Positions 1,315 to 16,577 of a stretch of DNA of 16,577 bases are shown piece after piece. The notes below the pieces were generated by a model. That model was given only the letters and a program-made list of their open reading frames with translations, did not search any database and was not told the origin of the DNA. The stretch spans positions 1 to 16,577 of the IMG/VR virus record IMGVR_UViG_2671180846_000036. The stretch is one strand, 5' to 3'. The position numbers and the translations under genes were made by a program. Source of the stretch: a virus. Lineage: Duplodnaviria; Heunggongvirae; Uroviricota; Caudoviricetes. The first letter of the stretch is position 1. Every line of letters starts with the position of its first letter.

Positions 1315-1369
1315 CGATACCTCCAGACGCCCAAGAGCGATACGAGCTTACATATTTCATGGTATTAAA

Positions 1370-1606: not shown

Positions 1607-1614
1607 GCATTACC

Positions 1615-1761: not shown

Positions 1762-1764
1762 TTT

Positions 1765-2007: not shown

Positions 2008-2038
2008 TTTTTCTCCTGCTCTCTGAATAGTGAGAACT

Positions 2039-2398
2039 TCAGAGTCGTATGTTTGTAGCGGGTTCAATGCTGATGATTTCTGCTGAGATAAGCATCCCGG
2101 CAAGCCAGAGCTCTCCGGACAGGTTTTCATCCTTGCATTCCAGTCCACCGATATTAATGGTGGCTATGATATCGCGCTCATCCTCGACTTCTTCATAAGG
2201 CAGCGTTGCGTACAGGCTTTCAATAGCGCAACTGATAACATCCAGTCCGGTCAGATTGCCGCCGACAGTAACTTCGAATGTTTCGCGGTATTCCCATAAC
2301 CCGAAAGTTAATCGAACGGTTTGTTTTGCCATGCGTCCGCATGACGTCAGATTCGGGTCATAGTTCATTATTTGCGGTTGGGCATTATGGGTGTTCAT
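2039..2398 (-). CDS. Hypothetical protein, about 119 aa (start trimmed to MNTHNAQ)
   Basis: ORF 2039..2470 overlaps the 3' end of the SPFH gene; the internal ATG at 2396-2398 is preceded by AAGGGAAAAG. No recognisable motif. Confidence 0.45.
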   Translation of the reverse strand: MNTHNAQPQIMNYDPNLTSCGRMAKQTVRLTFGLWEYRETFEVTVGGNLTGLDVISCAIESLYATLPYEEVEDERDIIATINIGGLECKDENLSGELWLAGMLISAEIISIEPATNIRL

Positions 2399-2438
2399 CT
2401 GCTTTTCCCTTAGCCCGGCGGCCTGCCGGGCATATAAG

Positions 2439-3266
2439 TTATTTAACCTGGATAAATGGTGTATTAGCACCGCTGGTCATGTATTGCGGCAGTGTGCCGT
2501 TCCATTTATTGATGGCTTCCAGCTCCATAACGCCGGGGTTCTGGCGCAGAGCTTCACCGCGTAAACGAATAGCATCAGCTTCGGCCTGGGCTTTTGTGCG
2601 AATCGCATCAGCCTGTCCGGCAGCTTCTGCGCGCAACATATTGGCTTCCGCTTCGCGCTGTTTTACTTCCTGCTCGCGCTGCAGTGTTTTCTGGTTCGCC
2701 GTGACTTTGGCATTAATGCTGTCGATAACGGTTGGCGGGTACTCCGGCTTACCCACATATGAGAGGCTCATTACCTGAATGCCGATAGGTGTCATCTCTG
2801 CCTGAATGTCTTTAAGAGCTTCATCCAGCAGCTCAGACTTGCCGCCGTCGATAAATTTGTCAGTGGTCATTTTGCTGGCCAGTCGGTTGAGTGCGTCGGC
2901 GATCTTCTGGCGCAGGTCAGTGTCGGTAATGTCATCCACGCCTTTGCGGTAGGTCTGAAACACCGTGGTAACTTTGGATGGATCAACTTTGTAGGCCACA
3001 CCGATGTGATAGCCGATGGTTGTACCGTCACTCATCTGGAAACTGAACGGTTCATCGTAGGTCTTCATTTGTTTGAAGGTGGGGAAGATATAAACTTCAG
3101 TATTCCAGCCAGTCCAGTAGCGACCAACACCGACCACCTCACCGACGCCTTTGTCGTCGCCCAGTTTATTTACCTTGATGCCAACATTACCTGGTTCAAC
3201 GCGATCGCAACCGACAAGGCCAATAGTCGGCAGAACAATGGCTAAAGCAAAAATAATTTTTTTCAT
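2439..3266 (-). CDS. SPFH/band-7 (prohibitin/stomatin-like) domain lipoprotein, 275 aa
   Basis: N-terminal lipoprotein signal peptide MKKIIFALAIVLPTIGLVGC with lipobox LVGC. Central beta-rich region followed by a long Ala/Glu/Arg/Gln-rich coiled-coil (REQEVKQREAEANMLRAEAAGQADAIRTKAQAEADAIRLRGEAL), the typical SPFH architecture. Start overlaps the stop of the upstream membrane-protein gene (ATGA). Confidence 0.75.
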   Translation of the reverse strand: MKKIIFALAIVLPTIGLVGCDRVEPGNVGIKVNKLGDDKGVGEVVGVGRYWTGWNTEVYIFPTFKQMKTYDEPFSFQMSDGTTIGYHIGVAYKVDPSKVTTVFQTYRKGVDDITDTDLRQKIADALNRLASKMTTDKFIDGGKSELLDEALKDIQAEMTPIGIQVMSLSYVGKPEYPPTVIDSINAKVTANQKTLQREQEVKQREAEANMLRAEAAGQADAIRTKAQAEADAIRLRGEALRQNPGVMELEAINKWNGTLPQYMTSGANTPFIQVK

Positions 3267-3451
3267 CTTTTATCCTTAGTGAAAGAAAGACCCTTGTAAA
3301 TGGCATAAATGCAGGGCGGGGTCAGAAACGCCAGTGCAAAGCCAGAAATAACTGCTATCGTATCCTTCATGGATATAAGGAACGGAACGAGTAATCCGTA
3401 AATGCATGCGATAATTGCCAGTGATATGACTATTCTGAAATAAATATTCAT
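3263..3451 (-). CDS. Small integral membrane protein, 62 aa, two predicted TM helices
   Basis: Two hydrophobic stretches (IVISLAIIACIYGLLVPFLI and IAVISGFALAFLTPPCIYAIY) with a basic C-terminal tail. Translationally coupled to the SPFH gene (ATGA overlaps at both ends). Confidence 0.6.
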   Translation of the reverse strand: MNIYFRIVISLAIIACIYGLLVPFLISMKDTIAVISGFALAFLTPPCIYAIYKGLSFTKDKR

Positions 3452-3726
3452 GCTCCTCCTGATATCTTTCTGATTGCCTTTTTCAACTTTTTACTGTTAT
3501 TCACGCTACAGTAAATTTCGGCAATCTCACGTGATAACATTATTTCTCCACTGTTTTTATCTATAGCAACGAGACTGGAATTGTCTCGTATGAGTTTCTT
3601 TATCATTGGCATTGCCATAAACTCTTCTGGCGTATAGATGCGTGTATGGCGGCGAACGTGTTTTATTACAGGTGTTTTATGTTTTGACTCAACCTGAAAT
3701 ACATTAATTTTATTCTGATTTGACAT
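3448..3726 (-). CDS. Hypothetical basic protein, 92 aa
   Basis: Complete ORF, ATG at 3724-3726 two nucleotides after the stop of the upstream gene; Lys/Arg-rich. No recognisable motif. Confidence 0.5.
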   Translation of the reverse strand: MSNQNKINVFQVESKHKTPVIKHVRRHTRIYTPEEFMAMPMIKKLIRDNSSLVAIDKNSGEIMLSREIAEIYCSVNNSKKLKKAIRKISGGA

Positions 3727-3728
3727 AT

Positions 3729-4310
3729 TTAATGTGCCACTGGTGTTTCTGGCATACCATGAGTATTCAGATCGTGAATCATTTCATCCAGAAGGAGTTC
3801 AAGCCCTTCGCGCCCCATAGCAGAAACAATGAAACCATTATCAGGATCTGCGATGAGCATATTTTGATAGAGAAACAGAACTCGCCCCATGCCTTCAGCT
3901 TCGCCATATTTTTCAATAAATCCCCATTCGACATGGTTTTGCAGGGCAATGCGAAGTGGTCCTGGGTATATACTCATGCAACCATGCTTCCCCTTATAAA
4001 TAACTGCGCGATCTGTAGTTCCGTCATCGTTAGGGATATCAATGGTGCCGTTCTTGCCTTCTTCTTCATTTATAAACGTCGTCACATACAGCCATCGCCA
4101 TTGAGCAATCTTCATATCGACTGAAAATCGTCCCAGTAATCCGGCATCATCGGCTTCAGCAATACATTGCATAATTCTTAAACCGTGAGAATTTGGATAA
4201 TCGTATTCACCATCATTAAGCCGCTGTACGGCCTCAACATAATCAATGGTTGTATTGCCCATTTTTATGCCATGTGGCGTAACTTCTGGTCGGAACTCTG
4301 AATGATTCAT
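3729..4310 (-). CDS. Hypothetical protein, 194 aa (start trimmed to MNHSEFRPEV)
   Basis: ATG at 4308-4310 overlaps the TGA stop of the upstream 67-aa gene (ATGA) and is preceded by AAGGAG 7 nt upstream. Acidic protein with no recognisable motif. Confidence 0.55.
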   Translation of the reverse strand: MNHSEFRPEVTPHGIKMGNTTIDYVEAVQRLNDGEYDYPNSHGLRIMQCIAEADDAGLLGRFSVDMKIAQWRWLYVTTFINEEEGKNGTIDIPNDDGTTDRAVIYKGKHGCMSIYPGPLRIALQNHVEWGFIEKYGEAEGMGRVLFLYQNMLIADPDNGFIVSAMGREGLELLLDEMIHDLNTHGMPETPVAH

Positions 4311-4510
4311 AATGTTTGCTCCTTTGCTGGTGGAATAATCGTGTAACCCGCTCTTTTTGCCATCCACAGAAATGTATCCATGCAGCCAACGAATTCATTA
4401 TCCAACAGATGTTTTGAGTAAATTACTTCACCATTTTCAATGGTTAGCAACACTCTTACTTTTTTATGTGTTATGTTTTGTTGTTTTTCTTCCATTGACT
4501 TATCTCCCAT
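4307..4510 (-). CDS. Hypothetical small protein, 67 aa, first gene of a five-gene leftward operon
   Basis: Complete ORF with a roughly 180-nt AT-rich upstream region (4511-4691) that probably carries the promoter; stop overlaps the next start. Confidence 0.45.
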   Translation of the reverse strand: MGDKSMEEKQQNITHKKVRVLLTIENGEVIYSKHLLDNEFVGCMDTFLWMAKRAGYTIIPPAKEQTL

Positions 4511-4691
4511 ATGCTTTGCGCAAATACAGGTTAGCTATATGAAGATAAGAATCTCCATGTTGTGCAATGAGGCAGGCAGTTTTATACGATGCCTTATGTT
4601 TCAGGAAAATCATAACATAATCTCCTGCGAATAAAGGTTGCAATAATCCCCGGCGATAAAACCGTAATAAACATTCAGGGAATATTTATTG

Positions 4692-5057
4692 TTATTGCGC
4701 TAATTCTTTTTCGGCAGCAGCTTTTGCATATTCACATGCAAAATTTAGAATTTCGCTGCCAAGTGTTTTTGTTTCGTGATTACTTGACATATGTAATACC
4801 TGTGTTGCATGCAATAAATGATAAACATTTACCGCAAATGAGTCCGGCTCCAGACAAATGCCTTCATAATCATCTTGTTGTGAGGTTGTTTCTGTCATTG
4901 CTCCTGAAGTGCATGCGAGCCTGTTTTTGACAATTCTCTTTCCTCTAATCACTATATCGGCAACATCTATTGCCTTTACAACCTCCGGGAGAAGTTCCGG
5001 GTTTGTATAATCAAAGTTATCAACATGGAGAACAGTTATGTTTTCGAACTTTTTCAT
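4692..5057 (-). CDS. Hypothetical protein, 121 aa
   Basis: Complete ORF in an AT-rich segment; no recognisable motif. Confidence 0.5.
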   Translation of the reverse strand: MKKFENITVLHVDNFDYTNPELLPEVVKAIDVADIVIRGKRIVKNRLACTSGAMTETTSQQDDYEGICLEPDSFAVNVYHLLHATQVLHMSSNHETKTLGSEILNFACEYAKAAAEKELAQ

Positions 5058-5185
5058 GGCTTCCTCAGCTGACTTATATGTTCTGCTATATAGCGAGTCT
5101 CAGAAGTGTTTTCATATTGAGACTGTTTCCGCAATGATCGATAAAAATGTTCGCATGTACCTTGAGGGGCGAAGCGGTGATTATG

Positions 5186-5734
5186 TCACCATTGGTATTG
5201 GTTCTTCCTTAGAAGAGCTTCGCGAGATAAGGAGCAAACTTGTTGAGATGCGTCATGGTGTTGCTGCTCCTCACTTTTTGGTTGCTCCGGAGGAGTAACC
5301 TCGCCAGTTAACAGCCACATCGGATCGCAGCCAAGAATATTTGCCAGTGGGATAAGCATACTGATAGTTGGTTCATACTCTCCGCTCTCCCACTGGATGA
5401 TAATTTCTTCATCGAGATCGAGCAGCCTGGCGAGTTCGGCGGTTGTTAAGCCGCAGGCTTCGCGTTGGGGGCGAAGGTTAACCAGCCAGCTTTCAGGGAA
5501 GGATTGTTTTTGTTGTGCAGGAGAAGCAGCAGATAGAGCATATTCATGGATAAATTCCATTACCTCAATGCCCAGTTCCTTTGAGCGAGCACAATCCAGA
5601 AGATGGAATGTGCGTACAGCACTTAGCAAATTTGCAATATTTAATGCAAAGGAATCAAGTTCTAAGCCCTTAAGCGTAACACAGCCGCAGTTGATAAAAT
5701 TAGTTGTTTCTGGAGTTGCGTTTAGTGTCTTCAT
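5186..5734 (-). CDS. XRE/Cro-C1-type HTH domain protein, 182 aa
   Basis: Segment LTTAELARLLDLDEEIIIQWESGEYEPTISMLIPLANILGCDPMWLL matches the XRE-family HTH pattern (helix, turn, QWE.G...P....L..LA..L). The HTH sits in the C-terminal half, which is atypical. Confidence 0.55.
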   Translation of the reverse strand: MKTLNATPETTNFINCGCVTLKGLELDSFALNIANLLSAVRTFHLLDCARSKELGIEVMEFIHEYALSAASPAQQKQSFPESWLVNLRPQREACGLTTAELARLLDLDEEIIIQWESGEYEPTISMLIPLANILGCDPMWLLTGEVTPPEQPKSEEQQHHDASQQVCSLSREALLRKNQYQW

Positions 5735-5843
5735 ATATCCACCAACAATTTTAAATTGAATTAAATCAAGTTATAATTGATGGTGCGATATTATGCTTTG
5801 AGAAATAGGCTGTCAAGAAAAAATTGATATTGTGTGTTTTAGG

Positions 5844-5868
5844 CAGAAAAAAACGGGCAAAGCCCGTT
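5844..5868 (-). terminator. Rho-independent terminator downstream of the repressor gene
   Basis: Plus strand aaaaaaa-AACGGGC-aaa-GCCCGTT; on the minus-strand transcript this is a 7-bp GC-rich stem, 3-nt loop, then a U7 tract, about 12 nt after the cI-like stop. Confidence 0.55.
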
Positions 5869-5879
5869 AAAATCAAAGA

Positions 5880-6575
5880 CTAACCAAATCTGTTTATATT
5901 GAATGGTACTGATGAGATCACTTTAGACTGGATATAAAGCAGAGCTAACCCCTCTTTTTCGATGCTCCATGGTTGATAATTGGGGTTATCAGATAACACC
6001 ATGATTTTGCTTCCAATTTTCTGAAGTCTTTTTACGTAGCATTCTCCATCAAAACAAAATGCATAAATGCCATCGCCATCAAAATAAGTTACTGTCTTAT
6101 CAAGAAAAAGAAGGTCGCCAGGTGAGATTGTGGGAGCCATACTGTCTCCTCTGGCGTTACCTATTTCTATATTTTTGAATGCCCGATTTCCAACAAGGCG
6201 TCGGGCATATTCAGGGTCAAGTTCTATTGAGCGCACTACATCTATCAAGTCACCACGGACATGAGTTCCATCACCGCAACTAAACTCAACATCAAGGACA
6301 TTAAACACGACGCTATCTGTTCTTGTCTGGTGTTTCTCTTGCGAGGAAAAGGTTGGTGAGGAGTCTTCACCTAAGAACCAGGATTGTGGATAACCGCTAA
6401 TCTCTGATAAATGCGCGAGCTTATCACTCCGTGGAAATGTTTTTCCTGTTGTCCAATACTGCACTGATTGCGCACTCACACCTAACTTGCGGGCCAGTTG
6501 AGCCTGAGTCCATCCTTTTGCTTTCAGCATTGCGGCTATTCGATTTTCCGTGTTTTTGACGTTCTTCATAACCAA
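5880..6575 (-). CDS. cI: CI-like phage repressor (N-terminal HTH, C-terminal S24 LexA-like autopeptidase), 231 aa
   Basis: N-terminal HTH (WTQAQLARKLGVSAQSVQYWTTGKTFP). The C-terminal domain carries the S24 catalytic Ser in GDSMAPT and the Lys in YVKRL. Divergent from a Cro-like gene across a 127-bp repeat-containing intergenic region. Confidence 0.9.
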   Translation of the reverse strand: MVMKNVKNTENRIAAMLKAKGWTQAQLARKLGVSAQSVQYWTTGKTFPRSDKLAHLSEISGYPQSWFLGEDSSPTFSSQEKHQTRTDSVVFNVLDVEFSCGDGTHVRGDLIDVVRSIELDPEYARRLVGNRAFKNIEIGNARGDSMAPTISPGDLLFLDKTVTYFDGDGIYAFCFDGECYVKRLQKIGSKIMVLSDNPNYQPWSIEKEGLALLYIQSKVISSVPFNINRFG

Positions 6576-6702
6576 ATCCTGTGGGTTTCTTTACAAGGAT
6601 AAATCTTTACTTGATTTTAGTGTATTCGATCCTTTTGTAACTTGCATGTTAATTTAAACTTGATGTATTCTTGATTCATAAAGTTAATATTGGTGCTTTG
6701 TT
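6576..6702. promoter_or_regulatory. Immunity-switch intergenic region (putative divergent promoters and operators)
   Basis: AT-rich 127-bp region between divergent cI-like and cro-like genes. Contains the imperfect inverted pair TACAAGGAT / ATCCTTTTGTA and several copies of ACTTGAT / CTTGATT. Exact operator half-sites and -10/-35 boxes were not resolved. Confidence 0.5.
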
Positions 6703-7002
6703 ATGAAAGGAAATGATTACGACAAACTTCGTGCATTAATTGCGCAAAATGCCATAGCGCGAAATCTTGGTGTGACGCCGCAAGCGGTGAATCAGTGGTT
6801 TTCAAAAAACACAATTCCTGCTCGTTTCGTTTTACGCGTATGTGAAGTAGTTGCATGGAAGGTCACGCCACATGGCTTAAGGCCAGATCTTTATCCTCAC
6901 CCTGAAGATGGAATTCCTGATTCGTTACGCAAAATTTCAAATCCAAGCTTAGCGCGCACGGAAGATGGGCAGAGTGATTTATCAGAAATGTCCACGCGAT
7001 GA
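6703..7002 (+). CDS. Cro-like HTH regulator, 99 aa
   Basis: Small protein with HTH (AIARNLGVTPQAVNQWFSKNTIP) transcribed divergently from the cI-like gene, in the canonical cro position. Short leader and weak SD. Confidence 0.7.
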   Translation: MKGNDYDKLRALIAQNAIARNLGVTPQAVNQWFSKNTIPARFVLRVCEVVAWKVTPHGLRPDLYPHPEDGIPDSLRKISNPSLARTEDGQSDLSEMSTR

Positions 7003-7078
7003 ACGGTTACTGAACGAAAAAAGAAAAGCCGGGCCGCATTCCGTCAGCCCGACTTATTCTGATTAGTAAGGGGATTTC

Positions 7079-7924
7079 ATGATGATCAATAAACAAAAAT
7101 TAGTCAACCCTGAAAACCTGCCAGTTATTGCTGGTGTAGAAATTTCAACTGATATGGTTGGGCGCTTTAATCTGAATGCATTGCATCGAGCCAGCGGTCT
7201 TGGCCCCAATAAAGCTCCGACGCAGTGGTTGCGTACTCAGTCAGCTAAACAACTTATTGAAGAGCTGGAAAAAGAAACTATGCAGAATTGCATAGTTTCA
7301 CTGGAAGGGCGGAATGGCGGTACTTTTGCGCACGAACTGCTTGCTGTTGAATATGCAGGATGGATTTCTCCTGCGTTCCGGTTGCAGGTGAACCAGACTT
7401 TTATTGACTATCGTACTGGCAAACTTACAGCGGGCAATAATCAGTTACCCAATTTTGACGATCCGATCGCTGCTGCTGAAGCGTGGATTGAGGCCAGAAA
7501 AGCCGAACGCCTTGCTCTCGGGTATGTAGAGCGTCAGGCTCGCTACATCAACAAACTTGAAAGCCATCTCGCCGATGGCATCACTCCTGTGCAGTTCTGC
7601 AAACAACTCAACGGTGTAAACACTCGTCAGATTAATGCGTTCCTTGAAGAGCGTAACTGGCTGTATGACGACCGTCCGGAGGCGATGTATCCGCGCTGGC
7701 GTGTAAAAGCGTATGCACGTGACCAATACCTGACTGAGCGTTCTGGGCAGGTTGAGCAGGAAAACGGGGAAATGCGCGAGATTTTCAAACCACTCCTGAA
7801 GAAAAAAGGTGCCGCCTGGTTATATCGCCATTATCTGAACGGCGAACTACCGATGAAGAAAACATGGGATGGGCTATTTACCCATAACACTGAGCTCGCG
7901 AATCTTTTACAGGAGAACAAATGA
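7079..7924 (+). CDS. KilA-N domain protein with C-terminal antirepressor-like region, 281 aa
   Basis: N-terminal segment FNLNALHRASG...GGTFAHELLAVEYAGWISPAFRLQV matches the KilA-N signature as I recall it (GTWxHP.LA...A.WlSP.F). AAGGGGA RBS upstream; stop overlaps the next gene start. Confidence 0.6.
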   Translation: MMINKQKLVNPENLPVIAGVEISTDMVGRFNLNALHRASGLGPNKAPTQWLRTQSAKQLIEELEKETMQNCIVSLEGRNGGTFAHELLAVEYAGWISPAFRLQVNQTFIDYRTGKLTAGNNQLPNFDDPIAAAEAWIEARKAERLALGYVERQARYINKLESHLADGITPVQFCKQLNGVNTRQINAFLEERNWLYDDRPEAMYPRWRVKAYARDQYLTERSGQVEQENGEMREIFKPLLKKKGAAWLYRHYLNGELPMKKTWDGLFTHNTELANLLQENK

Positions 7925-8133
7925 TGCAAACCAAGACGTGTGTAACTGGTGATGTCGATCTGAAACCTTGCCCGTTCTGCGGAAATCCGGAAGTACAACT
8001 CATTGAGGTGAAATATTTTCTGGATGGCGATGATGGTTATTACGTCGCATGTACTTGCTGTAACGCAAACCAGATTCCTGATTCGAAAGAACGTGCCGTT
8101 CATGACTGGAACCAGCGCGAAAACGTGGATTAA
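7921..8133 (+). CDS. Small zinc-ribbon protein, Lar-like (putative restriction alleviation), 70 aa
   Basis: Two Cys pairs (LKPCPFCG ... CTCC). The LKPCPFCG motif and size fit the Lar-family restriction-alleviation proteins of Rac-type prophages as I recall them. Translationally coupled (ATGATG) to the upstream gene. Confidence 0.5.
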   Translation: MMQTKTCVTGDVDLKPCPFCGNPEVQLIEVKYFLDGDDGYYVACTCCNANQIPDSKERAVHDWNQRENVD

Positions 8134-8447
8134 CGGCGAGTAGGTACAAAATGATCCGCAACCAAAATATTGATTCTGCAATTTCGGGACGTTACACTGT
8201 TCCGGCACCTTATAAAGCGGGTGCCGGGATTGGAACCCCGGAATTGCTCGAGGCGATATACGACGCGCCAGCGTCTTTTTTATCGTCCATGCTCGCGCAC
8301 GCCAGAATTATGGTGGGCTGGGCAGGGGAGCCGAAAGGCTCGCCGGTTTCCTTGAGCGCCGGTAGTTCCAACCCTGTCCAGTCCGCCACCAGTGAGATTG
8401 GAACCTCCGGTGGTGGAAGTTTTTCACTGCTCAAGGAGGCTGCCATC

Positions 8448-8810
8448 ATGGCTACAGTCCCAACTTCCCCATACCTGAAAATCGAAGTCGTCAACGGCAA
8501 AGCTGTTATTTTCTCCCTGCATGTTGCCTGCCACTTTAAGCGCATGCACCAGAACATCGTCGACAAAATCGAGTATCTGAACTGCTCACGCGAATTTTTT
8601 ACCCGCAATTTCATACCGGGTACTTATCACATCTATGGTGACTCCCTGCGTGGTTATTACATCACCCTTGATGGGCTGATGATGCTTCAGCTTGGGTTAA
8701 GTCTGCGCACAATGCGGTACTACGAGAGCTGCATTGAAGTATTCCATGAGGCTGAAACCAGTCTGAATCACACTGCTTTCCGCCGTAATCAATGGGAGGT
8801 GCGCCCATGA
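8448..8810 (+). CDS. Rha-family phage regulatory protein, about 120 aa (start at internal ATG; in-frame ORF extends back to 8151)
   Basis: VVNGKAVIFSLHVACHFKRMHQNIVDKIEYLNCSREFF...YITLDGLMMLQLGL resembles the Rha N-terminal domain pattern (V.NG.avt.Sl.vAe.FgK.H.nVlrdi..l.cs.eF...mTrdGf.lL.mg). The ATG at 8448 has a strong AAGGAGG RBS 8 nt upstream; the upstream in-frame extension is GC-rich, low-complexity and lacks a good RBS. Confidence 0.6.
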   Translation: MATVPTSPYLKIEVVNGKAVIFSLHVACHFKRMHQNIVDKIEYLNCSREFFTRNFIPGTYHIYGDSLRGYYITLDGLMMLQLGLSLRTMRYYESCIEVFHEAETSLNHTAFRRNQWEVRP

Positions 8811-9031
8811 TTCGTCGCGTTGTGAATTCTCTGTATCACCGATACAACCGTTGCCCCCGTGTGGGGCAGTGGTTTGCCACCAGCAACGGTCATGTTCTGC
8901 GGGTTTGCCTGGTCAGTACCGAAAGCCAGAAAGTCGTGTGTGAATTACTGGGGCGTAACTACACCATTAGCTACCCACTGGCGGTGTTTCAGTCCGGAAA
9001 AATGTTTAAACGCCTGGGAGGTGCCGTGTGA
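8807..9031 (+). CDS. Hypothetical small protein, 74 aa (start at MIRRV)
   Basis: ATG at 8807 overlaps the Rha stop (ATGA) and is preceded by GGGAGGTG. No recognisable motif. Confidence 0.45.
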   Translation: MIRRVVNSLYHRYNRCPRVGQWFATSNGHVLRVCLVSTESQKVVCELLGRNYTISYPLAVFQSGKMFKRLGGAV

Positions 9032-9984
9032 GTAGCAAAATTCTCGGTAACGTCTGGGATGCATGTGCCGCGTATGGAGTCAAAGGTGCAAAGCTGATGA
9101 TCATGGCGCGCCTGGCTGATTATTCGAATGATGACGGGGTGTGTTACCCCGGTGTTGAAACAATATGCCGACAGCTTGGGTTGGGAGAAAGCACAGTAAG
9201 AACGGCAATTTCAGAGCTGGAGGCTGATGGCTGGCTGACGCGTCATTCACGCCGCAAAGGTAATCGTAATACGTCCAATCTTTATCATCTGAATGCTGAT
9301 CGGCTTGAACAGCTTGCCAGAACGGAGCGGGATAAGGTCGCTGAACTGAAAAAACAGCGCAGACTTTCAGCATTACGTGACCCGTCAGAATCTGAACCGT
9401 CAGAATCTGAACCTTCAAAATCTGAACCGTCAGAATCTGAACCTTCAAAATCTGACCAGTCAGAATCTGAATGTTCAGGTGTGTTTGACCCTTCAGATTC
9501 TGGCAAAAAAACGGTTTTGACCCTTCAGAATCTGGACCCAGATCCACAAGGTTTAAAACATGATCCACAAGTAAATTCAAAACATGATCCGCAAGATATT
9601 GGCGCATCCGCTGACGCGTCTGCACCAGCGCGTTCTGCCCGACAGGAATATTCACCGGAATTTGAACAGGCCTGGCAGGAATATCCCAAACGTGCTGGTG
9701 GCAATTCCAAGTCAGCAGCCTTCAAAGCCTGGAAAGCCCGTCTCAGGGAGGGAATAAAACCGGAGACCATGCTTGATGGTGTGAGACGTTATGCCGCCTG
9801 GGTACGTGCTACAGGAAATACCGGCACACAGTTCGTGAAGCAGGCTGCGACGTTCTTTGGACCCGATCGTCATTTCGAGGAAGCCTGGCAACAGCCAGCC
9901 GCTCCCGGAGGTGGGCGAACTACCGGCCTCCCGATCTCGGGATTCAGTGAGCAGGACTACGGTTCAACGAACTTCAACTGGTGA
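9028..9984 (+). CDS. Replication initiator / replisome organiser (O-like; N-terminal wHTH, repeat-encoded Ser/Glu/Pro linker, C-terminal DnaT-like region), 318 aa
   Basis: N-terminal HTH-like region (CYPGVETICRQLGLGESTVRTAISELEADGWL); an internal low-complexity linker PSESEPSESEPSKSEPSESEPSK encoded by DNA tandem repeats; position immediately upstream of the DnaC-like and DnaB-like genes. The arrangement parallels lambda O, where ori iterons lie inside the gene. Confidence 0.7.
   Translation: MSSKILGNVWDACAAYGVKGAKLMIMARLADYSNDDGVCYPGVETICRQLGLGESTVRTAISELEADGWLTRHSRRKGNRNTSNLYHLNADRLEQLARTERDKVAELKKQRRLSALRDPSESEPSESEPSKSEPSESEPSKSDQSESECSGVFDPSDSGKKTVLTLQNLDPDPQGLKHDPQVNSKHDPQDIGASADASAPARSARQEYSPEFEQAWQEYPKRAGGNSKSAAFKAWKARLREGIKPETMLDGVRRYAAWVRATGNTGTQFVKQAATFFGPDRHFEEAWQQPAAPGGGRTTGLPISGFSEQDYGSTNFNW
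9382..9471. repeat. Six tandem 15-bp direct repeats (consensus CCGTCAGAATCTGAA), putative origin iterons
   Basis: Read directly: CCGTCAGAATCTGAA x2, CCTTCAAAATCTGAA, CCGTCAGAATCTGAA, CCTTCAAAATCTGAC, CAGTCAGAATCTGAA. The core CAGAATCTG is near-palindromic. Two further copies (GACCCTTCAGATTCTGG and GACCCTTCAGAATCTGG) lie at 9487-9535, followed by CATGATCCACAAG repeats and A/T-rich spacers at 9541-9600. Confidence 0.7.
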
Positions 9985-10003
9985 TTTTTCGAGGTGATGA
10001 ACA

Positions 10004-10894
10004 ATGTTTGAACAGTTAAAAAAATACTACGCACAACACGACAAAGCGCAATTGCTCAACCGCAGGGCGGAACTGGAGGAGGAGATGCAGTTTGCCCGTG
10101 CCGGGAAGCGTCCGTGGCGCTGTGAACACTGGCTGACAAGCGAGGAAACTGCTGAGTGTGAGAAACACGGGAAATACACACGTCTGGTGTTGAAAGGGCC
10201 AGATGTTCGTGGGGAAGCCATCAAACGGGTGTCTGGTTGCCCGACCTGCATTGCGAATGAACTGGATCAGGTACAGGAGGCGTTACGCATCCTGAAAGTT
10301 CATGAATTACTCGACAGGGCTGGTATTGCCCGCCGCTTCCAGAACTGCGAGTTTGAGAATTATCAGGCGGTGAATGCTGACGCACAGAGAAATCTTGAGG
10401 CTTGTCGGCGCTATGCCGGTTCATGGGAGAAGTGTCTTGCTGCGGGTACCAGCATGATCATGATTGGCAATTGCGGTACCGGGAAAAATCACCTGGCTGT
10501 ATCAATGGCAAAAAATATTATTCGCCACCACCTGGCGACTGTCGAAATTACGGATGTTATGCGACTGACCCGCGCTGTGAAAAATACCTGGCGTCACAAT
10601 TCTGAACGCACTGAAGATGAAGTTATTGACCATTTTGTATCGCTGGACCTGCTCATCATCGATGAGGTTGGTGTGCAGTTCGGTACGCCAACAGAGATAA
10701 CCATCCTGCAGGAAATCATCAATGCGCGTTACGAAAGCGTGTTACCGACAATTTTGATCAGCAATCTGACGTTTGAACAGCTTAAGGAATCCATTGGTGA
10801 ACGGATTGTGGATCGCGTTACTGATGGTGGGCGTAACTGTCTGGTGTTTGGTTGGGAAAGCTACCGTGCACATATCAGAGGTGTGGCAGCATGA
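10004..10894 (+). CDS. DnaC-like helicase loader (IstB-like AAA+ ATPase), 296 aa
   Basis: Walker A GNCGTGKNHLA and Walker B LLIIDEVG. N-terminal Cys cluster (RCEHW ... GCPTC) suggests a zinc-binding module. GAGGTGA RBS upstream. Confidence 0.85.
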   Translation: MFEQLKKYYAQHDKAQLLNRRAELEEEMQFARAGKRPWRCEHWLTSEETAECEKHGKYTRLVLKGPDVRGEAIKRVSGCPTCIANELDQVQEALRILKVHELLDRAGIARRFQNCEFENYQAVNADAQRNLEACRRYAGSWEKCLAAGTSMIMIGNCGTGKNHLAVSMAKNIIRHHLATVEITDVMRLTRAVKNTWRHNSERTEDEVIDHFVSLDLLIIDEVGVQFGTPTEITILQEIINARYESVLPTILISNLTFEQLKESIGERIVDRVTDGGRNCLVFGWESYRAHIRGVAA

Positions 10895-12282
10895 CAACTC
10901 CAGTCTGGCGTAACGATGACCTGGAAGGCGCTGTCATTGGCGCGTTCTTTCTGCGCGGGGCAGATCCTGAAGTGATGGATATTCTGGCCACACTACCTGC
11001 GGACGTTTTTTCTGTACGACCGTATCGGGATATCTACACAGGCATCTGCAGACAGGCCCGTGTTTCAGGTGTGATTGACCCTGTGCTGCTGTGTAATGAG
11101 ATGCCGGAACTTGCCCCGGTGATTACTGATACCGGGCGTAAAACCTGGGTGAAGTCTTCACTGGAGCACTATGTTGCAGCGTTGCGTCGCAATGCCGCAC
11201 TGCGTGATGCAGAAAAGACGCTGAATGAGGCGTTGCAGAAATTACGTGATGCGCATACCTGTGAAGCAGCTGAAGATGCCCTGAAGGATGCGCAGAACAT
11301 GATGGCCTCATTGTCGACGGAAAAGGGCGTTATTCAGCCGGTACATATTGATGATGTGCTTCCGGAAGTGGTTGAGCGTGTTGAATGCCGGAATCAGGGG
11401 CTGGAGAAATCCAGGACGTTGATGACCGGTATTGATGAACTGGACGCAAAAACGGGCGGCATGGAGCCTGGCGACCTGGTATTTATTGCTGCACGTCCTT
11501 CGATGGGCAAAACCGAACTGGCGCTGGATATCATCGACAAGGTGACTGAGCAGGGGCATGGTGTTCTTCTGTTCACAATGGAAATGGCGAACATCCAGAT
11601 TGGTGAGCGCATGGTATCTGCGGCTGGAGGAATGCCGGTATCACGTCTGAAATCTGTCACTCACTTTGAAGACGAAGACTGGGCACGTTTCTCACAAGGG
11701 GTGGGGCGGATGACCGGGCGCAATATCTGGATGGTGGACCAGGCGAACCTGACCATTGACGAGATATGCGCAACAACGAAACACCACCTGATTAAACATC
11801 CGGAAACGGCGCTGGTGGTGGTTGATTATCTCGGACTGATAAAAACCCGAACCACGGGGCGTCATGACCTTGCCGTGGGTGAAATCTCAAAGGGGCTTAA
11901 AGGTCTGGCAAAATCCGGTGGTTTTCCGTTGATTGCGCTGAGTCAGCTCTCCCGCGGTGTGGAGTCCAGACCCAATAAACGTCCGATGAACTCAGACCTG
12001 AAAAATTCCGGAGAAATAGAGGCGGATGCAGACATCATTCTGATGCTTTACAGGGATGAAGTGTACAACCCGGATACGCAGGCCAGGGGCATCGCAGAAA
12101 TCAATATCACGAAACAGCGTAACGGTTCTCTGGGGACGGTTTACCGGCGTTTTTATAACGGACATTTTCTGCCTGTGGATCAGGAAAGCGCACAGATTCT
12201 TTCCACCCCAATGCAGCAGCCCCAGCCGCGCAGATACAGCAATAAGCGAACCGACAGCAGTAAGATGGAGCGTTTCTTTTGA
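10891..12282 (+). CDS. DnaB-like replicative DNA helicase, about 463 aa (start at MTTPVW)
   Basis: RecA-like C-terminal domain with Walker A ARPSMGKTELAL, Walker B-like VVVDYLGLI and the SQLSR motif typical of DnaB-family helicases. ATG at 10891 overlaps the DnaC-like stop (ATGA). Confidence 0.85.
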   Translation: MTTPVWRNDDLEGAVIGAFFLRGADPEVMDILATLPADVFSVRPYRDIYTGICRQARVSGVIDPVLLCNEMPELAPVITDTGRKTWVKSSLEHYVAALRRNAALRDAEKTLNEALQKLRDAHTCEAAEDALKDAQNMMASLSTEKGVIQPVHIDDVLPEVVERVECRNQGLEKSRTLMTGIDELDAKTGGMEPGDLVFIAARPSMGKTELALDIIDKVTEQGHGVLLFTMEMANIQIGERMVSAAGGMPVSRLKSVTHFEDEDWARFSQGVGRMTGRNIWMVDQANLTIDEICATTKHHLIKHPETALVVVDYLGLIKTRTTGRHDLAVGEISKGLKGLAKSGGFPLIALSQLSRGVESRPNKRPMNSDLKNSGEIEADADIILMLYRDEVYNPDTQARGIAEINITKQRNGSLGTVYRRFYNGHFLPVDQESAQILSTPMQQPQPRRYSNKRTDSSKMERFF

Positions 12283-12293
12283 ACAACCAGACC

Positions 12294-12536
12294 ATGACTT
12301 TTACGCCTGAACAATTACGTAAACAGGCACAGGAAATGTTACGACAGGCGGAACAACTGGAAAAGACAGGCGTAACAAAAGATGCCATTCGTAAGGATAT
12401 GGTGCCAGCGCTCAGGGAACTGATGCAGGCGAAACACCGCGCACAAAAAGCAGTGGATGAGCTGGTGGATTGTGTGGCAGAGCTGGAAACCAAAGTTGGA
12501 AAGTTCGAAAAACTGGTGCAGGAGGTACTGCGCTGA
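12294..12536 (+). CDS. Small coiled-coil hypothetical protein, about 80 aa
   Basis: Charged helical sequence (EQLRKQAQEMLRQAEQLEK...). The track ORF begins at a TTG at 12279; the first ATG is at 12294. Stop overlaps the Q start (TGATG). Confidence 0.45.
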   Translation: MTFTPEQLRKQAQEMLRQAEQLEKTGVTKDAIRKDMVPALRELMQAKHRAQKAVDELVDCVAELETKVGKFEKLVQEVLR

Positions 12537-12904
12537 TGCGTGATATGTACGAAGTTTTAGATCGTTGGGGGGCCTGGGCTGCAGCAGATAACAGTGGTGT
12601 GGACTGGCAGCCGATAGCAGCAGGCTTCAAGGGGCTTTTACCACACGGTAAAAAGTCACGTCTCCAGTGTGATGATGACGAAGGTATCATGATAGACGGT
12701 TGTGTGGCTCGGTTGCGAAAGTATAAACCCGAAGAGTATGAGTTGATCATTGCTCACTTTGTTATTGGTATCTCATTACGCGCTATTGCTAAAAAACGGA
12801 AATGTTCAGATGGAACAATACGGAAAGAGATGCAAACAGCAATGGGGTTTATTGATGGCTGCTTGTCATTTTTCATTTACTACAATGACTTAAGTTCTAT
12901 GTAA
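12536..12904 (+). CDS. Q: Late-gene antitermination protein Q (phage 82/21/DLP12 QuuD-type), 122 aa
   Basis: [60 protein letters not shown]... closely parallels the N-terminus of DLP12/phage-21-type Q as I recall it ([34 protein letters not shown]...[20 protein letters not shown]). Position after the replication genes fits. Confidence 0.85.
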   Translation: [122 protein letters not shown]

Positions 12905-12910
12905 AATCGT

Positions 12911-12945
12911 TCTACTTTCCCAACTTTTATGTGTATATAATACCA
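12911..12945 (+). promoter_or_regulatory. Putative promoter region downstream of Q (candidate PR'-like late promoter or cargo-gene promoter)
   Basis: AT-rich stretch with a consensus TATAAT hexamer at 12936-12941, about 27 nt upstream of the GTG start of the methyltransferase; no convincing -35. Proximity to the Q stop (12904) matches where lambdoid PR'/qut sites lie. Confidence 0.3.
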
Positions 12946-12967
12946 GGATAAAGTAACGGAGAATCTT

Positions 12968-14008
12968 GTGAACATTCAGGCAGTAGACATTTTTTGTGGT
13001 GCGGGGGGCTTAACTTTTGGGCTAAAAAAAGCCGGGATTGAGGTTTCTCATGGTATTGATATTGATGAATCCTGCCGTTTTGCTATTGAGAGCAATAATC
13101 CTTTAACGCAGTTCATTAATCAGTCAGTTACAGAACTGCAATCCTGCGATGTGTCTGCTATGTTCAAGGAAGGAAATATTAGATTGCTTGCTGGATGTGC
13201 TCCTTGCCAACCGTTTTCCAAGTATCGTAATCCAAATAGCCGTAAAGACGATACAAAGTGGCGTTTGTTATATGAGTTTCAAAGGCTTGTAAGTGATGTC
13301 ATGCCAGAGCTTGTGACGATGGAGAATGTTCCTCAACTTAGAAACCATAAGGTTTTTGAAGGGTTTGTTAGTGCATTAAAGACTCTTGGATATCATTTGT
13401 GGTACGACGTTGTAAGATGTTCTGAGTATGGCTTACCTCAAAATAGACGTAGATTAATTCTAATTGGTTCCCAATTGGGGCCGATCAGCCTTGATCAAAA
13501 AAAAGTTAGCCGTAAAGTTACTGTTAAGGATGCTATTGGTAGGTTGCCAAAAGTAGGGGCAGGTGAGAAGCTGGAAAGCGATCCCTTGCATCGTTCGCCT
13601 AAATTGATGGATATCAATCTTAAACGAATCATGCATTCTTTACCTGGTGGTACGTGGGATGACTGGCCTGAAGAAATTAGAGCAGACTGTCATAAAAAGA
13701 ATTCAGGTGCTACCTATAAAAGCGTTTATGGACGGATGGTTTGGGACGATACTAGCCCTACGATAACTACCCAGTGTTATGGATATGGAAATGGACGATT
13801 TGGCCATCCTGAGCAAAATCGCGCCATAACTTTGCGTGAAGCTGCGATTTTGCAATCCTTTCCAATGGATTATAAATTCCTTGACAAGGAGACGCCTTTT
13901 TCATTCCAAAAATTGGGGACAATGATTGGAAATGCTGTTCCCCCTATAATTGGTCAGATAATAGGGGAAACATTTATCAGACATGTTGAGGGGATAAATA
14001 CCCGTTAG
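12968..14008 (+). CDS. DNA (cytosine-5)-methyltransferase (Dcm-type), 346 aa, GTG start
   Basis: Canonical C5-MTase motifs in order: I DIFCGAGG (FxGxGG), IV GCAPCQPFS (catalytic PCQ), VI TMENVPQL (ENV), VIII QNRRRL, X GNAVPP. ACGGAG RBS upstream. AT-rich relative to the replication module. Confidence 0.9.
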   Translation: MNIQAVDIFCGAGGLTFGLKKAGIEVSHGIDIDESCRFAIESNNPLTQFINQSVTELQSCDVSAMFKEGNIRLLAGCAPCQPFSKYRNPNSRKDDTKWRLLYEFQRLVSDVMPELVTMENVPQLRNHKVFEGFVSALKTLGYHLWYDVVRCSEYGLPQNRRRLILIGSQLGPISLDQKKVSRKVTVKDAIGRLPKVGAGEKLESDPLHRSPKLMDINLKRIMHSLPGGTWDDWPEEIRADCHKKNSGATYKSVYGRMVWDDTSPTITTQCYGYGNGRFGHPEQNRAITLREAAILQSFPMDYKFLDKETPFSFQKLGTMIGNAVPPIIGQIIGETFIRHVEGINTR

Positions 14009-14666
14009 AGGTAATATAATTTTCTGTTGAGTTGATTAATAAACGCAAATATAGATCAATTCTTTCTGACCTCGATTTGACTTCTTCTAAAGGGTCTATT
14101 TGACCTTTTTTAGAAAAGCTGGTACTTCCATGTGCCAGCTCATTTCTGATATCTTTAAGTAAATCTAAGTCAACACCATTTCTACACTCTGGTGAGTTTG
14201 CAACAGTTATTCCGTAAGCTTGTGTTATTTTGTGCAATACAGACTTGCAAACATTACCATTGAATTCTTTACGTATGTTTAATGAGGCTGAAATGATCCT
14301 TTTAGATATATCGGAACCAATTTTTTGATAAAGAGATTTTCCCGATTCATTATCTGAAATGATACGGTGCAAGATATTTACTTGGAATTTCTCCCTGAGT
14401 GATGCGTAATTTACTTCATTATCTTGCAAATGGTCATAAATTGACTCAATGCATCCTCTGGCAGTGTTTTCAACCTGATTGTACAGCATCATGTGCACGG
14501 ATGATTTTAAAATGTTAACCCTAAGGGTATTTGATTCTATTTCATCTTTATGCGTTTGCTGATCTAACTGCTGAGTCTGAGCCTCTAAAGATGACGCAAG
14601 AGAAAGCAATTCCATAATATCTCTTGCTCTTTCTTCGTATTCATCTCTTAAATCAATCAAACTCAT
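13977..14666 (-). CDS. HEPN-like protein (Rx4H motif; resembles the MAE_28990/MAE_18760 HEPN family), 229 aa
   Basis: Predicted all-helical protein with the motif DIRNELAHG (R-x4-H) in the C-terminal third, the hallmark of HEPN RNase domains. Second gene of a two-gene operon (start 2 nt after the DUF262 gene stop). Its 3' end overlaps the convergent C5-MTase gene by 32 bp. Confidence 0.55.
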   Translation of the reverse strand: MSLIDLRDEYEERARDIMELLSLASSLEAQTQQLDQQTHKDEIESNTLRVNILKSSVHMMLYNQVENTARGCIESIYDHLQDNEVNYASLREKFQVNILHRIISDNESGKSLYQKIGSDISKRIISASLNIRKEFNGNVCKSVLHKITQAYGITVANSPECRNGVDLDLLKDIRNELAHGSTSFSKKGQIDPLEEVKSRSERIDLYLRLLINSTENYITSNGYLSPQHV

Positions 14667-14668
14667 AG

Positions 14669-15826
14669 TTACATTCCTAATAATTTATCTTTGACATAAA
14701 ATATTCTGTTTTTGAGTTGGCTGGTGTTGTTGGCACTATCAGCAGTAACTATGGTTTCAAATTCCTCCCCAAACAGCCAGTCTCCTACAGGAATAACCGG
14801 AGCCTGTAGATGTGGATTGGCTTTTAAGGCAAGAGCAGTTCCCACTGCTATGGCTTCGTATCTAGCACGGGGGGTGGTTTTGCTTGTTGGTGTCTTTTTA
14901 AACCCCATAGGGAAATGAGTATCTACAAAAGCAAGCATGCTTTCAAAATCATGTTTAAATTTGTCAACATCTTGTTGTGTGACCCTTTCGGCCTGAACAT
15001 TAAGATAATTGTCAATAAAAGGAGCGACATAACCCTTATAATTTTCTAAATCATTTAAGTATGCAAAAAATCTCAAAACTAACTCACGATGATCGCCATT
15101 CGAACGCTTCCGGTCTGATAATGGAGCTAGACTAGCGAAAAGTGGATTTGTTGAGCAAGGAGTCACAACATCCCTATAGAAAATTGAAGTGGCCGCATCT
15201 GAACCATGTCTAACCTCCATCGCTTCCAGTCTCTTAACACCTGAATTTATTCTTTCGAATAAATCTCTTCTATGTTGCTCCTCAACATCACCTTTCAATT
15301 CAATAAATCTTAGTGATGCCCTTAAAAATCGCCTCTGGCGGCTAGCCAAAAGATCTGAAAATTTGAAGCCCTCTAAACTTTTGAGTTCTTTTAAGTCTTT
15401 CAATTCAAACTGATTGTTCCAAAAGTAGTAAATTGAGCGAATCCTTTGTGAACCGTCAATAATTTCTACACGACCATCCAACTCAGGATCTTCATTAAAT
15501 ACGTCGGAGATGTAGAGGTACGGGATTGGAAAATCTAATAATATACTTTCGATGAATCGAGAGGCTGTTTTGATATCCCATTTGTAATCGCGTTGATAAT
15601 CAGGAATAAAAAGTTCGTTTTTGTCAGTTTCAAGATTATTGCCATACTTTTGTACAATTAATTCAACGGTCCATTCACGTACGTTGTATCCAATATTTCT
15701 CTGAGCAAGCCTAATCTCGTTGTCGGCAGAAGTGACCAAGGCTGCAATTTCAGCTTTTTTTCTATTTTTCGCGTTTTCATCTTGAATCTGAGCAAGCTCT
15801 TCTTTGAGTTCTTTGAGTGTGGTCAT
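14669..15826 (-). CDS. DUF262 (ParB/Srx-like NTPase, GmrS-N-like) domain protein, 385 aa
   Basis: N-terminal region contains the two DUF262 signature motifs: IPDYQRDYKW (P-x-[FY]-QR-x-Y-x-W) and EIIDGSQRIRSIY (DGQQR-like). No recognisable C-terminal HNH/DUF1524 nuclease. AGGAA RBS upstream of the ATG at 15824-15826. Confidence 0.8.
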   Translation of the reverse strand: MTTLKELKEELAQIQDENAKNRKKAEIAALVTSADNEIRLAQRNIGYNVREWTVELIVQKYGNNLETDKNELFIPDYQRDYKWDIKTASRFIESILLDFPIPYLYISDVFNEDPELDGRVEIIDGSQRIRSIYYFWNNQFELKDLKELKSLEGFKFSDLLASRQRRFLRASLRFIELKGDVEEQHRRDLFERINSGVKRLEAMEVRHGSDAATSIFYRDVVTPCSTNPLFASLAPLSDRKRSNGDHRELVLRFFAYLNDLENYKGYVAPFIDNYLNVQAERVTQQDVDKFKHDFESMLAFVDTHFPMGFKKTPTSKTTPRARYEAIAVGTALALKANPHLQAPVIPVGDWLFGEEFETIVTADSANNTSQLKNRIFYVKDKLLGM

Positions 15827-15936
15827 ATCACTGTTCCTTTAATTGGAGTTGGAAATAGATTGTAAGAAAACTATAACGCGTACGCAAAAAATATTATATC
15901 GTGTTAAGAGTGGTTACTACGCCACACAGCTTAAAC

Positions 15937-15957
15937 CCGCCGCCAGGCGGTTTTTTG
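15937..15957 (+). terminator. Putative rho-independent terminator (plus-strand orientation)
   Basis: CCGCC-gcca-GGCGG hairpin (5-bp GC stem, 4-nt loop) followed by TTTTTTGTGT. No plus-strand CDS lies immediately upstream, since the region between 14008 and 15826 is occupied by minus-strand genes. Confidence 0.4.
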
Positions 15958-16079
15958 TGTCCGAAAAACGGCGCAGTACGTTAAACGTGCTGGTGGTTGC
16001 GAATACCGGTCTTTCAGCTTGCTGGCTTTTCAGACAAGAGTTATTGGTGTGTCACGTTAACCAGAAAAGGGAAAAAGAC

Positions 16080-16277
16080 ATGCTAAAACAGCAGGATATG
16101 ACCGAAACCGCCAGAGTGGTATTTAATGAATTAAGTGTCACCGAACCGGCGACCGTCGGGGAAATTGCGCAGAATACCTACCTTTCACGCGAACGCTGCC
16201 AGTTAATACTGACCCAGCTTGTTATGGCGGGTCTGGCAGATTATCAGTTCGGTTGTTACAGACGCCTTCCGCAGTGA
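16080..16277 (+). CDS. Small putative winged-helix DNA-binding protein, about 65 aa (start at MLKQQ; alternative start MTETA at 16098)
   Basis: Internal start of ORF 15843..16277, preceded by AAAAGGGAAAAAG. Segment ATVGEIAQNTYLSRERCQLILTQLVMAGLA looks like a wHTH recognition helix and is reminiscent of FaeA/PapI-like small regulators; the resemblance is weak. Confidence 0.4.
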   Translation: MLKQQDMTETARVVFNELSVTEPATVGEIAQNTYLSRERCQLILTQLVMAGLADYQFGCYRRLPQ

Positions 16278-16427
16278 AGGCTTTTTAATTTGTGGTAATG
16301 GGCGGCTGGTGGGTGTTAGCGGCACCTGCCAGCCATCTGCTCATGCGTTGGGGTCACAAGCAAACCTCAGGCCCATCTGCTTTGCGCAAAAGCGGAATGA
16401 GCCTATCAGAGAAGTGCTTATTGATCT

Positions 16428-16577
16428 ATGGCTAATACTGTAAAAATATCCAGTTGTGAGTTAATCAACGCTGATTGCCTGGAATTTATCCAGACCTTAC
16501 CGGAAAACTCTGTCGATCTGATAGTCACAGACCCGCCATACTTTAAAGTGAAGCCCGAGGGCTGGGATAACCAGTGG
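16428..16577 (+). CDS. DNA methyltransferase, N6-adenine/N4-cytosine class (DPPY motif), 5' partial (first 50 codons; runs off the window)
   Basis: Hand translation from the ATG at 16428: MANTVKISSCELINADCLEFIQTLPENSVDLIVTDPPYFKVKPEGWDNQW. SVDLIVTDPPY is the catalytic motif IV (DPPY) of amino-MTases, placed near the N-terminus as in beta-class enzymes. Absent from the ORF track because no stop lies within the window. Confidence 0.75.
   Translation, partial: MANTVKISSCELINADCLEFIQTLPENSVDLIVTDPPYFKVKPEGWDNQW

Follow-up and report, generated by a model that had tools for sequence, protein, structure and literature searches.

DUF262 proteins are textbook modules of modification-dependent (type IV) restriction, and HEPN proteins, for their part, typically act as RNases in abortive infection and in toxin systems. 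The subject of this work is a three-gene cassette in which one gene of each kind lies beside a cytosine methylase gene, carried in a 16,577-nt stretch of Caudoviricetes DNA (IMG/VR record IMGVR_UViG_2671180846_000036, positions 1 to 16,577; the whole stretch is hereafter called the window). The cassette encodes a C5-cytosine DNA methyltransferase of 346 aa (here called family A), the predicted modification module (12968-14008, plus strand; PF00145, 9.5e-54), an MAE_28990-family HEPN protein of 229 aa, predicted to be the effector nuclease (13977-14666, minus strand; PF18737, 3.8e-16, and PF18735, 6.7e-08), and a DUF262/GmrSD_N (ParB-like NTPase) protein of 385 aa, the predicted sensor (14669-15826, minus strand; PF03235, 1.1e-25). 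Because only 2 nt separate the end of the DUF262 gene from the HEPN start, both on the minus strand, these two genes are regarded as an operon. An earlier note on this stretch, made from its letters alone, had suggested a modification-linked three-gene system, and its placing of the methylase and HEPN genes, including a 32-bp overlap of their 3' ends, proved right in every coordinate on direct reading of the sequence.

The triad was foreshadowed in the literature by a predicted operon of MAE_28990 HEPN, ParB (DUF262) and DNA methylase genes (Anantharaman 2013, Biol Direct 8:15, Table 1), and that work was the basis of the Pfam family matched by the window HEPN. All the elements of the predicted operon were found here, namely an MAE_28990 HEPN protein with an Rx4-6H motif, a DUF262 gene in the same operon and a conserved adjacent methylase. 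The published entry is a single table line with no quantification, mechanism or experiment, to which the present analysis adds the phage context, two methylase families, alternative partners and a decay pattern. It was the only paper naming the family found in our literature search, which returned no experimental study of a methylase-DUF262-HEPN system. Relative to characterised systems, the cassette reads as a new, 5-methylcytosine (m5C)-linked DUF262-HEPN system.

The closest validated system is PD-T4-2 from E. coli ECOR65, a two-gene DUF262 and HEPN anti-phage system (Vassallo et al. 2022). The window DUF262 protein matches PD-T4-2_A in PADLOC (3.4e-27, over residues 72-336), the NsnA model being the best and much better match (7e-46), and the window HEPN matches PF18735, the family reported for PD-T4-2; no match of this HEPN to the PD-T4-2 models was obtained even at E <= 10. 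PD-T4-2 differs in size (1,540 bp against 1,850 bp here) and works when cloned without a methylase, which in the present loci is a conserved third gene. A second relative is SspABCD-SspE, in which a DUF262 protein is likewise the restriction arm of a host DNA modification and the modules are exchangeable, but the mark is backbone sulfur rather than m5C and SspE carries its own DUF1524 HNH nuclease, whereas here a separate HEPN is found. GmrSD and BrxU share the N-terminal DUF262 NTPase domain with its DGQQR-type motif (DGSQR in the window protein), BrxU being the top structural match; they attack modified DNA, however, have no cognate methylase, and their arrangement with a DUF1524 partner is not that of the cassette. 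The linkage of a methylase to DUF262-HEPN implies a logic different from that of GmrSD and BrxU.

Membership of the GmrSD, BrxU and SspE groups was rejected, no DUF1524 His-Me/HNH nuclease being fused to or paired with the DUF262 protein. Menshen (NsnABC) was considered on account of the NsnA match and likewise rejected, since the window contains no NsnB ATPase and no NsnC and the gene downstream of DUF262 encodes the HEPN protein. A 2025 analysis of Menshen asked whether methylases found beside it serve ParB-DUF262 proteins that target unmodified DNA (PMC12065111). DISARM (through DrmMII) and GHKL type II restriction-modification systems use the same methylase family as a self-marking module but have a different restriction arm, either a SNF2/DUF1998 complex or a GHKL-nuclease fusion, and DISARM itself was rejected as the DrmA/DrmB/DrmC core genes are absent from the window despite the DrmMII match of its methylase (4e-85). 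Nor is this a classical type II system, for neither the ParB-like NTPase nor HEPN has a recognised restriction fold (PD-(D/E)xK, HNH, GIY-YIG, PLD or half-pipe).

Linkage of the methylase to the DUF262-HEPN pair

Among 5,426 complete E. coli genomes, with presence taken as at least 80% coverage, the methylase was detected in 107 and the DUF262-HEPN pair in 107, both counts splitting alike into 73 genomes at 99% identity or above and 34 with a diverged allele. Adjacency, in the order Q antiterminator gene, cassette, lysis genes, was checked in one locus per allele, in two different lambdoid prophages. For more distant relatives, an alignment of DUF262 homologues was run against one genome per species and the six-frame open reading frames (ORFs) of the loci were searched with the window methylase and with HEPN and DUF262 profiles. 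This yielded 80 loci with DUF262 identities of 38-59%, from Gamma-, Beta- and Deltaproteobacteria, Bacteroidota, Planctomycetota, Acidobacteriota, Lentisphaerota and Cyanobacteria (at least six phyla), many of them chromosomal and outside recognisable mobile elements. An orthologous methylase was directly adjacent in 47 of the 80 (E 1e-106 to 1e-139) and a decayed copy in one more, and in five others the neighbour belonged to a second C5-methylase family (family B), whose members are 43-68% identical to one another and about 28% identical to the window enzyme. Replacement methylases were always C5-specific (PF00145), never N6 or N4. Ten loci lay on contigs too short to judge, so that an adjacent C5 methylase was present in 53 of 70 informative loci.

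The reverse survey started from an alignment of the methylase against viral contigs and gave 80 loci (47-100% identity), six of them too short and 74 informative. The DUF262-HEPN pair stood beside the methylase in 45 of the 74; among the remaining 29, the partner was a GHKL ATPase in 19, DISARM DrmD in 6-7 and a NERD/UvrD helicase with Vsr in one, and two had no restriction-type neighbour. The nearly constant presence of restriction-type partners is a strong argument against an orphan anti-restriction methylase, the first of the options in the earlier note. The co-occurrence with DUF262-HEPN homologues for which that note had called is thus documented in E. coli (107 genomes for each part), in distant genomes and on viral contigs, and this conserved linkage favours its option of a modification component whose restriction arm is DUF262-HEPN. 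The linkage is not due to chance; it is tight and ancient.

Given these alternative partners, the methylase family is a modification module that combines with several kinds of restriction arm. The GHKL partner has about 650 aa, is MORC-like, contains HATPase_c_3 and falls in the PADLOC class of type II restriction enzymes (1.5e-91); examples are L116 (6088-8073), L131 (6021-8033) and L164 (1013-2977), with 16 other viral loci. The methylase family was also found directly upstream of DrmD (SNF2, >1500 bits), as in L123 (6039-9248) and five to six similar loci, which indicates that it also serves as DrmMII of DISARM-type systems on viral contigs. Shorter GHKL versions of about 550 aa, in L153 and L162, end in an Rx4H-like motif (RDAVAH or RDAMSH), suggesting a GHKL-HEPN fusion.

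Gene decay in the collected loci was asymmetric. All three genes were intact in 92 loci, and about eight kept a whole methylase next to a split or truncated DUF262 and/or HEPN; in none was the methylase broken and each of its two partners whole. In four loci (L080 and the E. coli loci L165-L167) a frameshifted methylase accompanied a truncated HEPN. In L165-L167 (CP184814, CP184811 and CP184821; 5001-6700) the frameshifts split the methylase and destroy motif I, HEPN is cut to 192 aa with the last 37 residues lost, and in one genome DUF262 is split as well. Such asymmetry would be expected of an effector arm that does harm in the absence of the methylase, and we take it as supporting evidence, not as proof. 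Pairwise distances of DUF262 correlated strongly with those of HEPN (r = 0.92) and less so with those of the methylase (r = 0.71, Mantel p = 0.001), as would fit joint inheritance over short evolutionary distances and exchange of modules over longer ones.

The three proteins and a proposed mechanism

The methylase ORF begins with GTG, preceded by GGAG 8 nt upstream, and ends with TAG at 14006-14008. Its product matches PF00145 with 183 bits and contains, as the earlier note had read, the full set of C5-methyltransferase motifs, I (FCGAGG), IV (PCQPFS), VI (ENV), VIII (QNRRR), IX (LREAAILQSFP) and X (GNAVPP), with Cys80 of the PCQ motif as catalytic residue. All six motifs were invariant across 19 orthologues (46-59% identity), in which the target-recognition region was conserved as well, across phyla, and an enzyme with so complete a catalytic set is predicted to be active. 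The label Dcm-type given to it earlier was loose: the protein scores above the cut-off of TIGR00675, the general model of the dcm superfamily (121 bits against 100.65), but falls far short of the E. coli Dcm subfamily model (16.5 against 710) and is better read as a member of the C5-methylase superfamily. In PADLOC it matched MTase_II (1.6e-87) and DrmMII, both over the full length. Matches to proteins of known structure (DNMT1, HaeIII and 3g7u) covered only the catalytic core and gave no target site, and a methylome paper on ST131 did not cover this gene and did not detect m5C. The MTCGAK site reported to be methylated by Serratia DrmMII is a lead for the target of the window enzyme; TCGA/MTCGAK is not depleted in the window (observed/expected 1.11).

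The DUF262 protein matches PF03235 with 91 bits, and its motifs PDYQR (75-79) and DGSQR (124-128) were invariant in 26 sequences. Its AlphaFold (AF2) model (predicted local distance difference test score, pLDDT, 81.5) has a ParB-like N-domain and a purely helical C-terminal half. The best structural matches in the PDB by Foldseek were BrxU, SspE (second-best) and ParB/Noc CTPases, globally weak matches (BrxU E 7e-3), because the domain arrangement differs, that confirm the ParB/GmrSD N-domain and nothing more. Neither Pfam nor the AF2 model revealed a DUF1524 or other nuclease domain, and HEPN is therefore the only candidate effector nuclease in the cassette. Two DUF262 segments, residues 1-45 and approximately 256-300 (window 15692-15826 and about 14927-15061), are hypervariable, with 10-50% identity against 60-90% elsewhere, in all pairwise comparisons, irrespective of the methylase family with which the protein is paired; they may, for instance, serve in specificity or in contact with a partner, or help to evade inhibitors.

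The HEPN protein, whose stop codon reads TCA on the plus strand (13977-13979), scores 60.4 bits against PF18737 (cut-off 26.8) and also matches PF18735. Its Rx4H motif, R174-N-E-L-A-H179-G, was conserved in 99-100% of 71 homologues, among which N63, E66, G137 and N138 were further conserved residues. A Foldseek search of the HEPN model (pLDDT 73.7) against the PDB returned just generic helical bundles (best E 0.15); as this was uninformative, the HEPN assignment rests on the profile matches and the motif.

We favour, with a probability of roughly 0.6, a reading in which the three genes would constitute one restriction-modification-like defence module, probably also addictive, carried as prophage cargo. 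By methylating a short, fixed site, the methyltransferase would put a self mark on host and prophage DNA, and the DUF262 protein, as a ParB/GmrSD-type NTPase, would sense the cytosine-methylation state of DNA. Upon meeting unmarked DNA it would switch on its operon partner HEPN, which would use its Rx4H active site to destroy nucleic acid, most likely RNA, so that phage growth or the infected cell would be halted. Unmethylated DNA as the trigger, HEPN as the effector, the HEPN substrate and the methylated site are parts of this scheme that we infer. Preservation of the linkage from enterobacteria to cyanobacteria and planctomycetes marks the cassette as a likely restriction-modification-like anti-phage system. 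Precedents exist for both arms: SspE, the DUF262 restriction arm of the phosphorothioate system, arrests growth without its modification genes (PMC12707154), and the DrmMII methylase marks self DNA in DISARM (bioRxiv 10.1101/2021.12.28.474362).

A bolder version would be restriction-modification without a DNA endonuclease, in which DUF262 acts as a ParB/CTPase-like clamp that reads the m5C state of DNA, its polarity reversed in comparison with the type IV relatives, and unleashes a HEPN RNase on unmethylated DNA, tying epigenetic recognition of self to an RNA-cleaving effector of abortive infection, with the methylase family as a shared self-mark hub for at least three unrelated effector arms (DUF262-HEPN, GHKL nucleases and DISARM); we put it forward tentatively, as a possibility with the odds against it. 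The coupling of DUF262 and HEPN to a dedicated cytosine methylase suggests a third use of DNA methylation in immunity, beside classical restriction-modification and BREX/DISARM, and the cassette would be the m5C counterpart of the phosphorothioate Ssp system. The proposed system would further explain PD-T4-2-like pairs with and without methylases and offer a handle on what DUF262 senses. The cassette is compact (3 kb) and of E. coli origin, hence directly clonable. It is widely distributed among prophages of lineages with clinical importance (ST131-type E. coli and Klebsiella pneumoniae), in which it could affect the host range of phage therapy, the stability of the prophage and the methylome of the host.

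Objections and alternative explanations

Several observations weigh against a methylase-dependent module triggered by unmarked DNA. The characterised DUF262 enzymes GmrSD and BrxU attack modified DNA, which is the opposite polarity. PD-T4-2, the only validated DUF262 and HEPN system, protected E. coli K-12 as a 1.8-kb clone lacking a methylase (PMC9519451, Table S2), and Serratia class 1 DISARM tolerates loss of its methylases (bioRxiv 10.1101/2021.12.28.474362), so that a shared methylase family is no proof of dependence. Intact DUF262-HEPN pairs without an adjacent methylase, and with none within about 6 kb, accounted for 17 of the 70 informative loci in the DUF262-based survey. In a neighbour-joining tree of DUF262 proteins, all 17 group as a single cyanobacterial clade, and no other class of methylase was found beside them, the neighbours being housekeeping genes (ClpB, aconitase B, HemA, SppA, PilT and an RsmB-like rRNA methylase). 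The decay cases are few, phylogenetically clustered and not independent, and ranked distances of DUF262 and the methylase correlate only weakly (Spearman 0.27). Finally, no DUF262 region separates the partners of family B methylases from their close relatives paired with family A, which would be odd for a sensor that reads one specific sequence.

The 3' ends of the convergent methylase and HEPN genes share 32 bp in the window (13977-14008, both strands, from the ORF coordinates), again 32 bp in the second E. coli allele and 35 bp in Klebsiella. In a survey of 90 loci with a family A methylase and DUF262-HEPN, the methylase was convergent behind HEPN in 75, 56 of which overlap by 4-101 bp (median 17 bp), and was co-directional upstream in 12 and downstream in three; the overlap is therefore a family trait and not a chance feature of the window. 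The earlier note had also offered co-acquired cargo regulated by convergent transcription, and of this proposal the half concerning joint acquisition stood, the cassette occupying the same slot in related prophages. The regulatory half would make the overlap a device by which convergent transcription or antisense RNA balances the methylase against DUF262-HEPN, for example by delaying the effector in a new host. In its favour, convergence and overlap are frequent, and since the consensus scan for promoters and terminators detected no terminator separating the two genes, their transcripts must collide. That scan found fewer promoter-like sites than in shuffled sequences and none in the overlap, however, and RNA folding there was not significant (z -0.7 and -1.7). 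Moreover, 15 of the 90 loci are co-directional and 19 convergent loci do not overlap, the overlap covers poorly conserved, length-variable protein tails with no conserved structure, and simple genome compaction explains it equally well. We consider regulation through the overlap possible, with more doubt than belief.

The main rival to a methylase that shields self DNA is defence licensed by modification, on the pattern of SspE: host m5C would act as a cofactor or reference signal for DUF262 activity or regulation, and loss of the methylase would abolish defence, not kill the cell. This would explain the same linkage data, would fit the preference of DUF262 proteins for modified DNA (BrxU acts on 5mC, PMC10952713, and phosphorothioate stimulates SspE, PMC12707154) and would accommodate the methylase-less pairs tolerated in cyanobacteria. 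It is less well suited to the decay pattern, which toxicity explains better, with no broken methylase beside intact partners and the reverse common, and to the protective part that this methylase family plays beside restriction-enzyme-like proteins and in DISARM. We judge it unlikely.

Selfish stabilisation by post-segregational killing, in which a stable DUF262-HEPN toxin and dilution of the methylation would kill cured cells and defence would be secondary, seems more improbable still as the primary function. Type II restriction-modification systems are known to behave in this way, the cassette is small and mobile and resides in prophages of successful clones (ST131, K. pneumoniae), and the decay asymmetry fits addiction. 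Addiction is not exclusive of defence, however; many loci are chromosomal with no recognisable mobile element, and the relatives detected through PADLOC-type matches (PD-T4-2 and Menshen NsnA) are defence proteins.

Least probable, and in our estimate only a slim chance, are two independent cargo functions, an orphan phage methylase acting against host restriction and a PD-T4-2-like or type IV-like DUF262-HEPN pair acting against other (e.g. hypermodified) phages: PD-T4-2 works without a methylase, the slot behind Q gathers unrelated cargo (PD-Lambda-1, a porin, HicAB) and the methylase is oriented like the early and late phage genes with DUF262-HEPN opposite, but the same adjacency, usually with overlapping stop regions, recurs in at least six phyla, beyond phages and enterobacteria, the methylase is solitary in just 2 of the 74 informative viral loci, its replacement is always another C5 methylase and decay is asymmetric.

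Prophage setting and neighbouring features

The source of the window is a phiP27-like lambdoid prophage of E. coli, 99.5-100% identical to prophages of ST131-type and other strains. Its genes run rightwards from an HTH (helix-turn-helix)/O-like protein, a DnaC-like loader and a DnaB helicase, all of replication, to the Q antiterminator (12470-12904, PF06530) and then to the three-gene cassette. The whole mobile cassette spans 12875-15896, from the 3' part of Q to a conserved promoter/terminator-like segment, as delimited by the breaks in homology to phage phiP27 and E. coli strain WAT, which stops in the 3' part of Q and picks up again at about 15896, and by the GC profile. GC content is 0.34-0.42 across approximately 12750-15750 and 0.49-0.54 upstream, bearing out the AT-rich island that the methylase and DUF262-HEPN had been said to share.

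At the same slot phiP27 carries L22, the validated defence gene PD-Lambda-1 (PADLOC, 2e-89), and strain WAT an ompC-like porin gene. In a second type of E. coli prophage, with a different Q and different replication genes, the slot holds a diverged allele of the three-gene cassette, and in K. pneumoniae prophages the cassette again occupies it, with a HicAB toxin-antitoxin pair additionally beside it. The slot corresponds to 12905-15896 in the window and to 3612-4841 in L002, 3710-4807 in L003 and 5007-5638 in L168. The interval from Q to the conserved segment downstream is thus a hotspot for cargo, defence genes included.

That downstream segment, of about 60 bp (15896-15960), is kept in four otherwise different prophages and contains a -10-like element followed by a strong hairpin and T-run terminator (15937-15956). 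It may be a late-promoter (pR'-type) leader with its terminator, in which case the cassette would sit between Q and the site at which Q acts. Perfect TATAAT hexamers stand at either side of the cassette. One, at 12936-12941 on the plus strand, 27 nt before the GTG start, is a candidate -10 element of the methylase's own promoter with a weak -35; the second E. coli allele has a nearly identical sequence around this site, and the consensus scan did not call it because of the poor -35. The other, at 15893-15898 on the minus strand, at the right cassette edge and 66 nt upstream of the ATG, is a candidate -10 element for the DUF262-HEPN operon, and an AGGA ribosome-binding site precedes the DUF262 start.

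Elsewhere in the window, a 15-bp unit is repeated 6.3 times at 9378-9471, inside the O-like replication gene (9028-9984), where it codes for SEPSKSEPSE repeats; the array probably represents the iterons of the phage origin. An ORF of 144 aa with a TTG start (15843-16277) runs across the terminator region and is probably spurious, RefSeq annotating its last 66 codons alone (16080-16277; TrmB-like in phiP27). Another DNA-methyltransferase gene, of a type other than C5-cytosine, begins at about 16428 and continues past the window end (16577).

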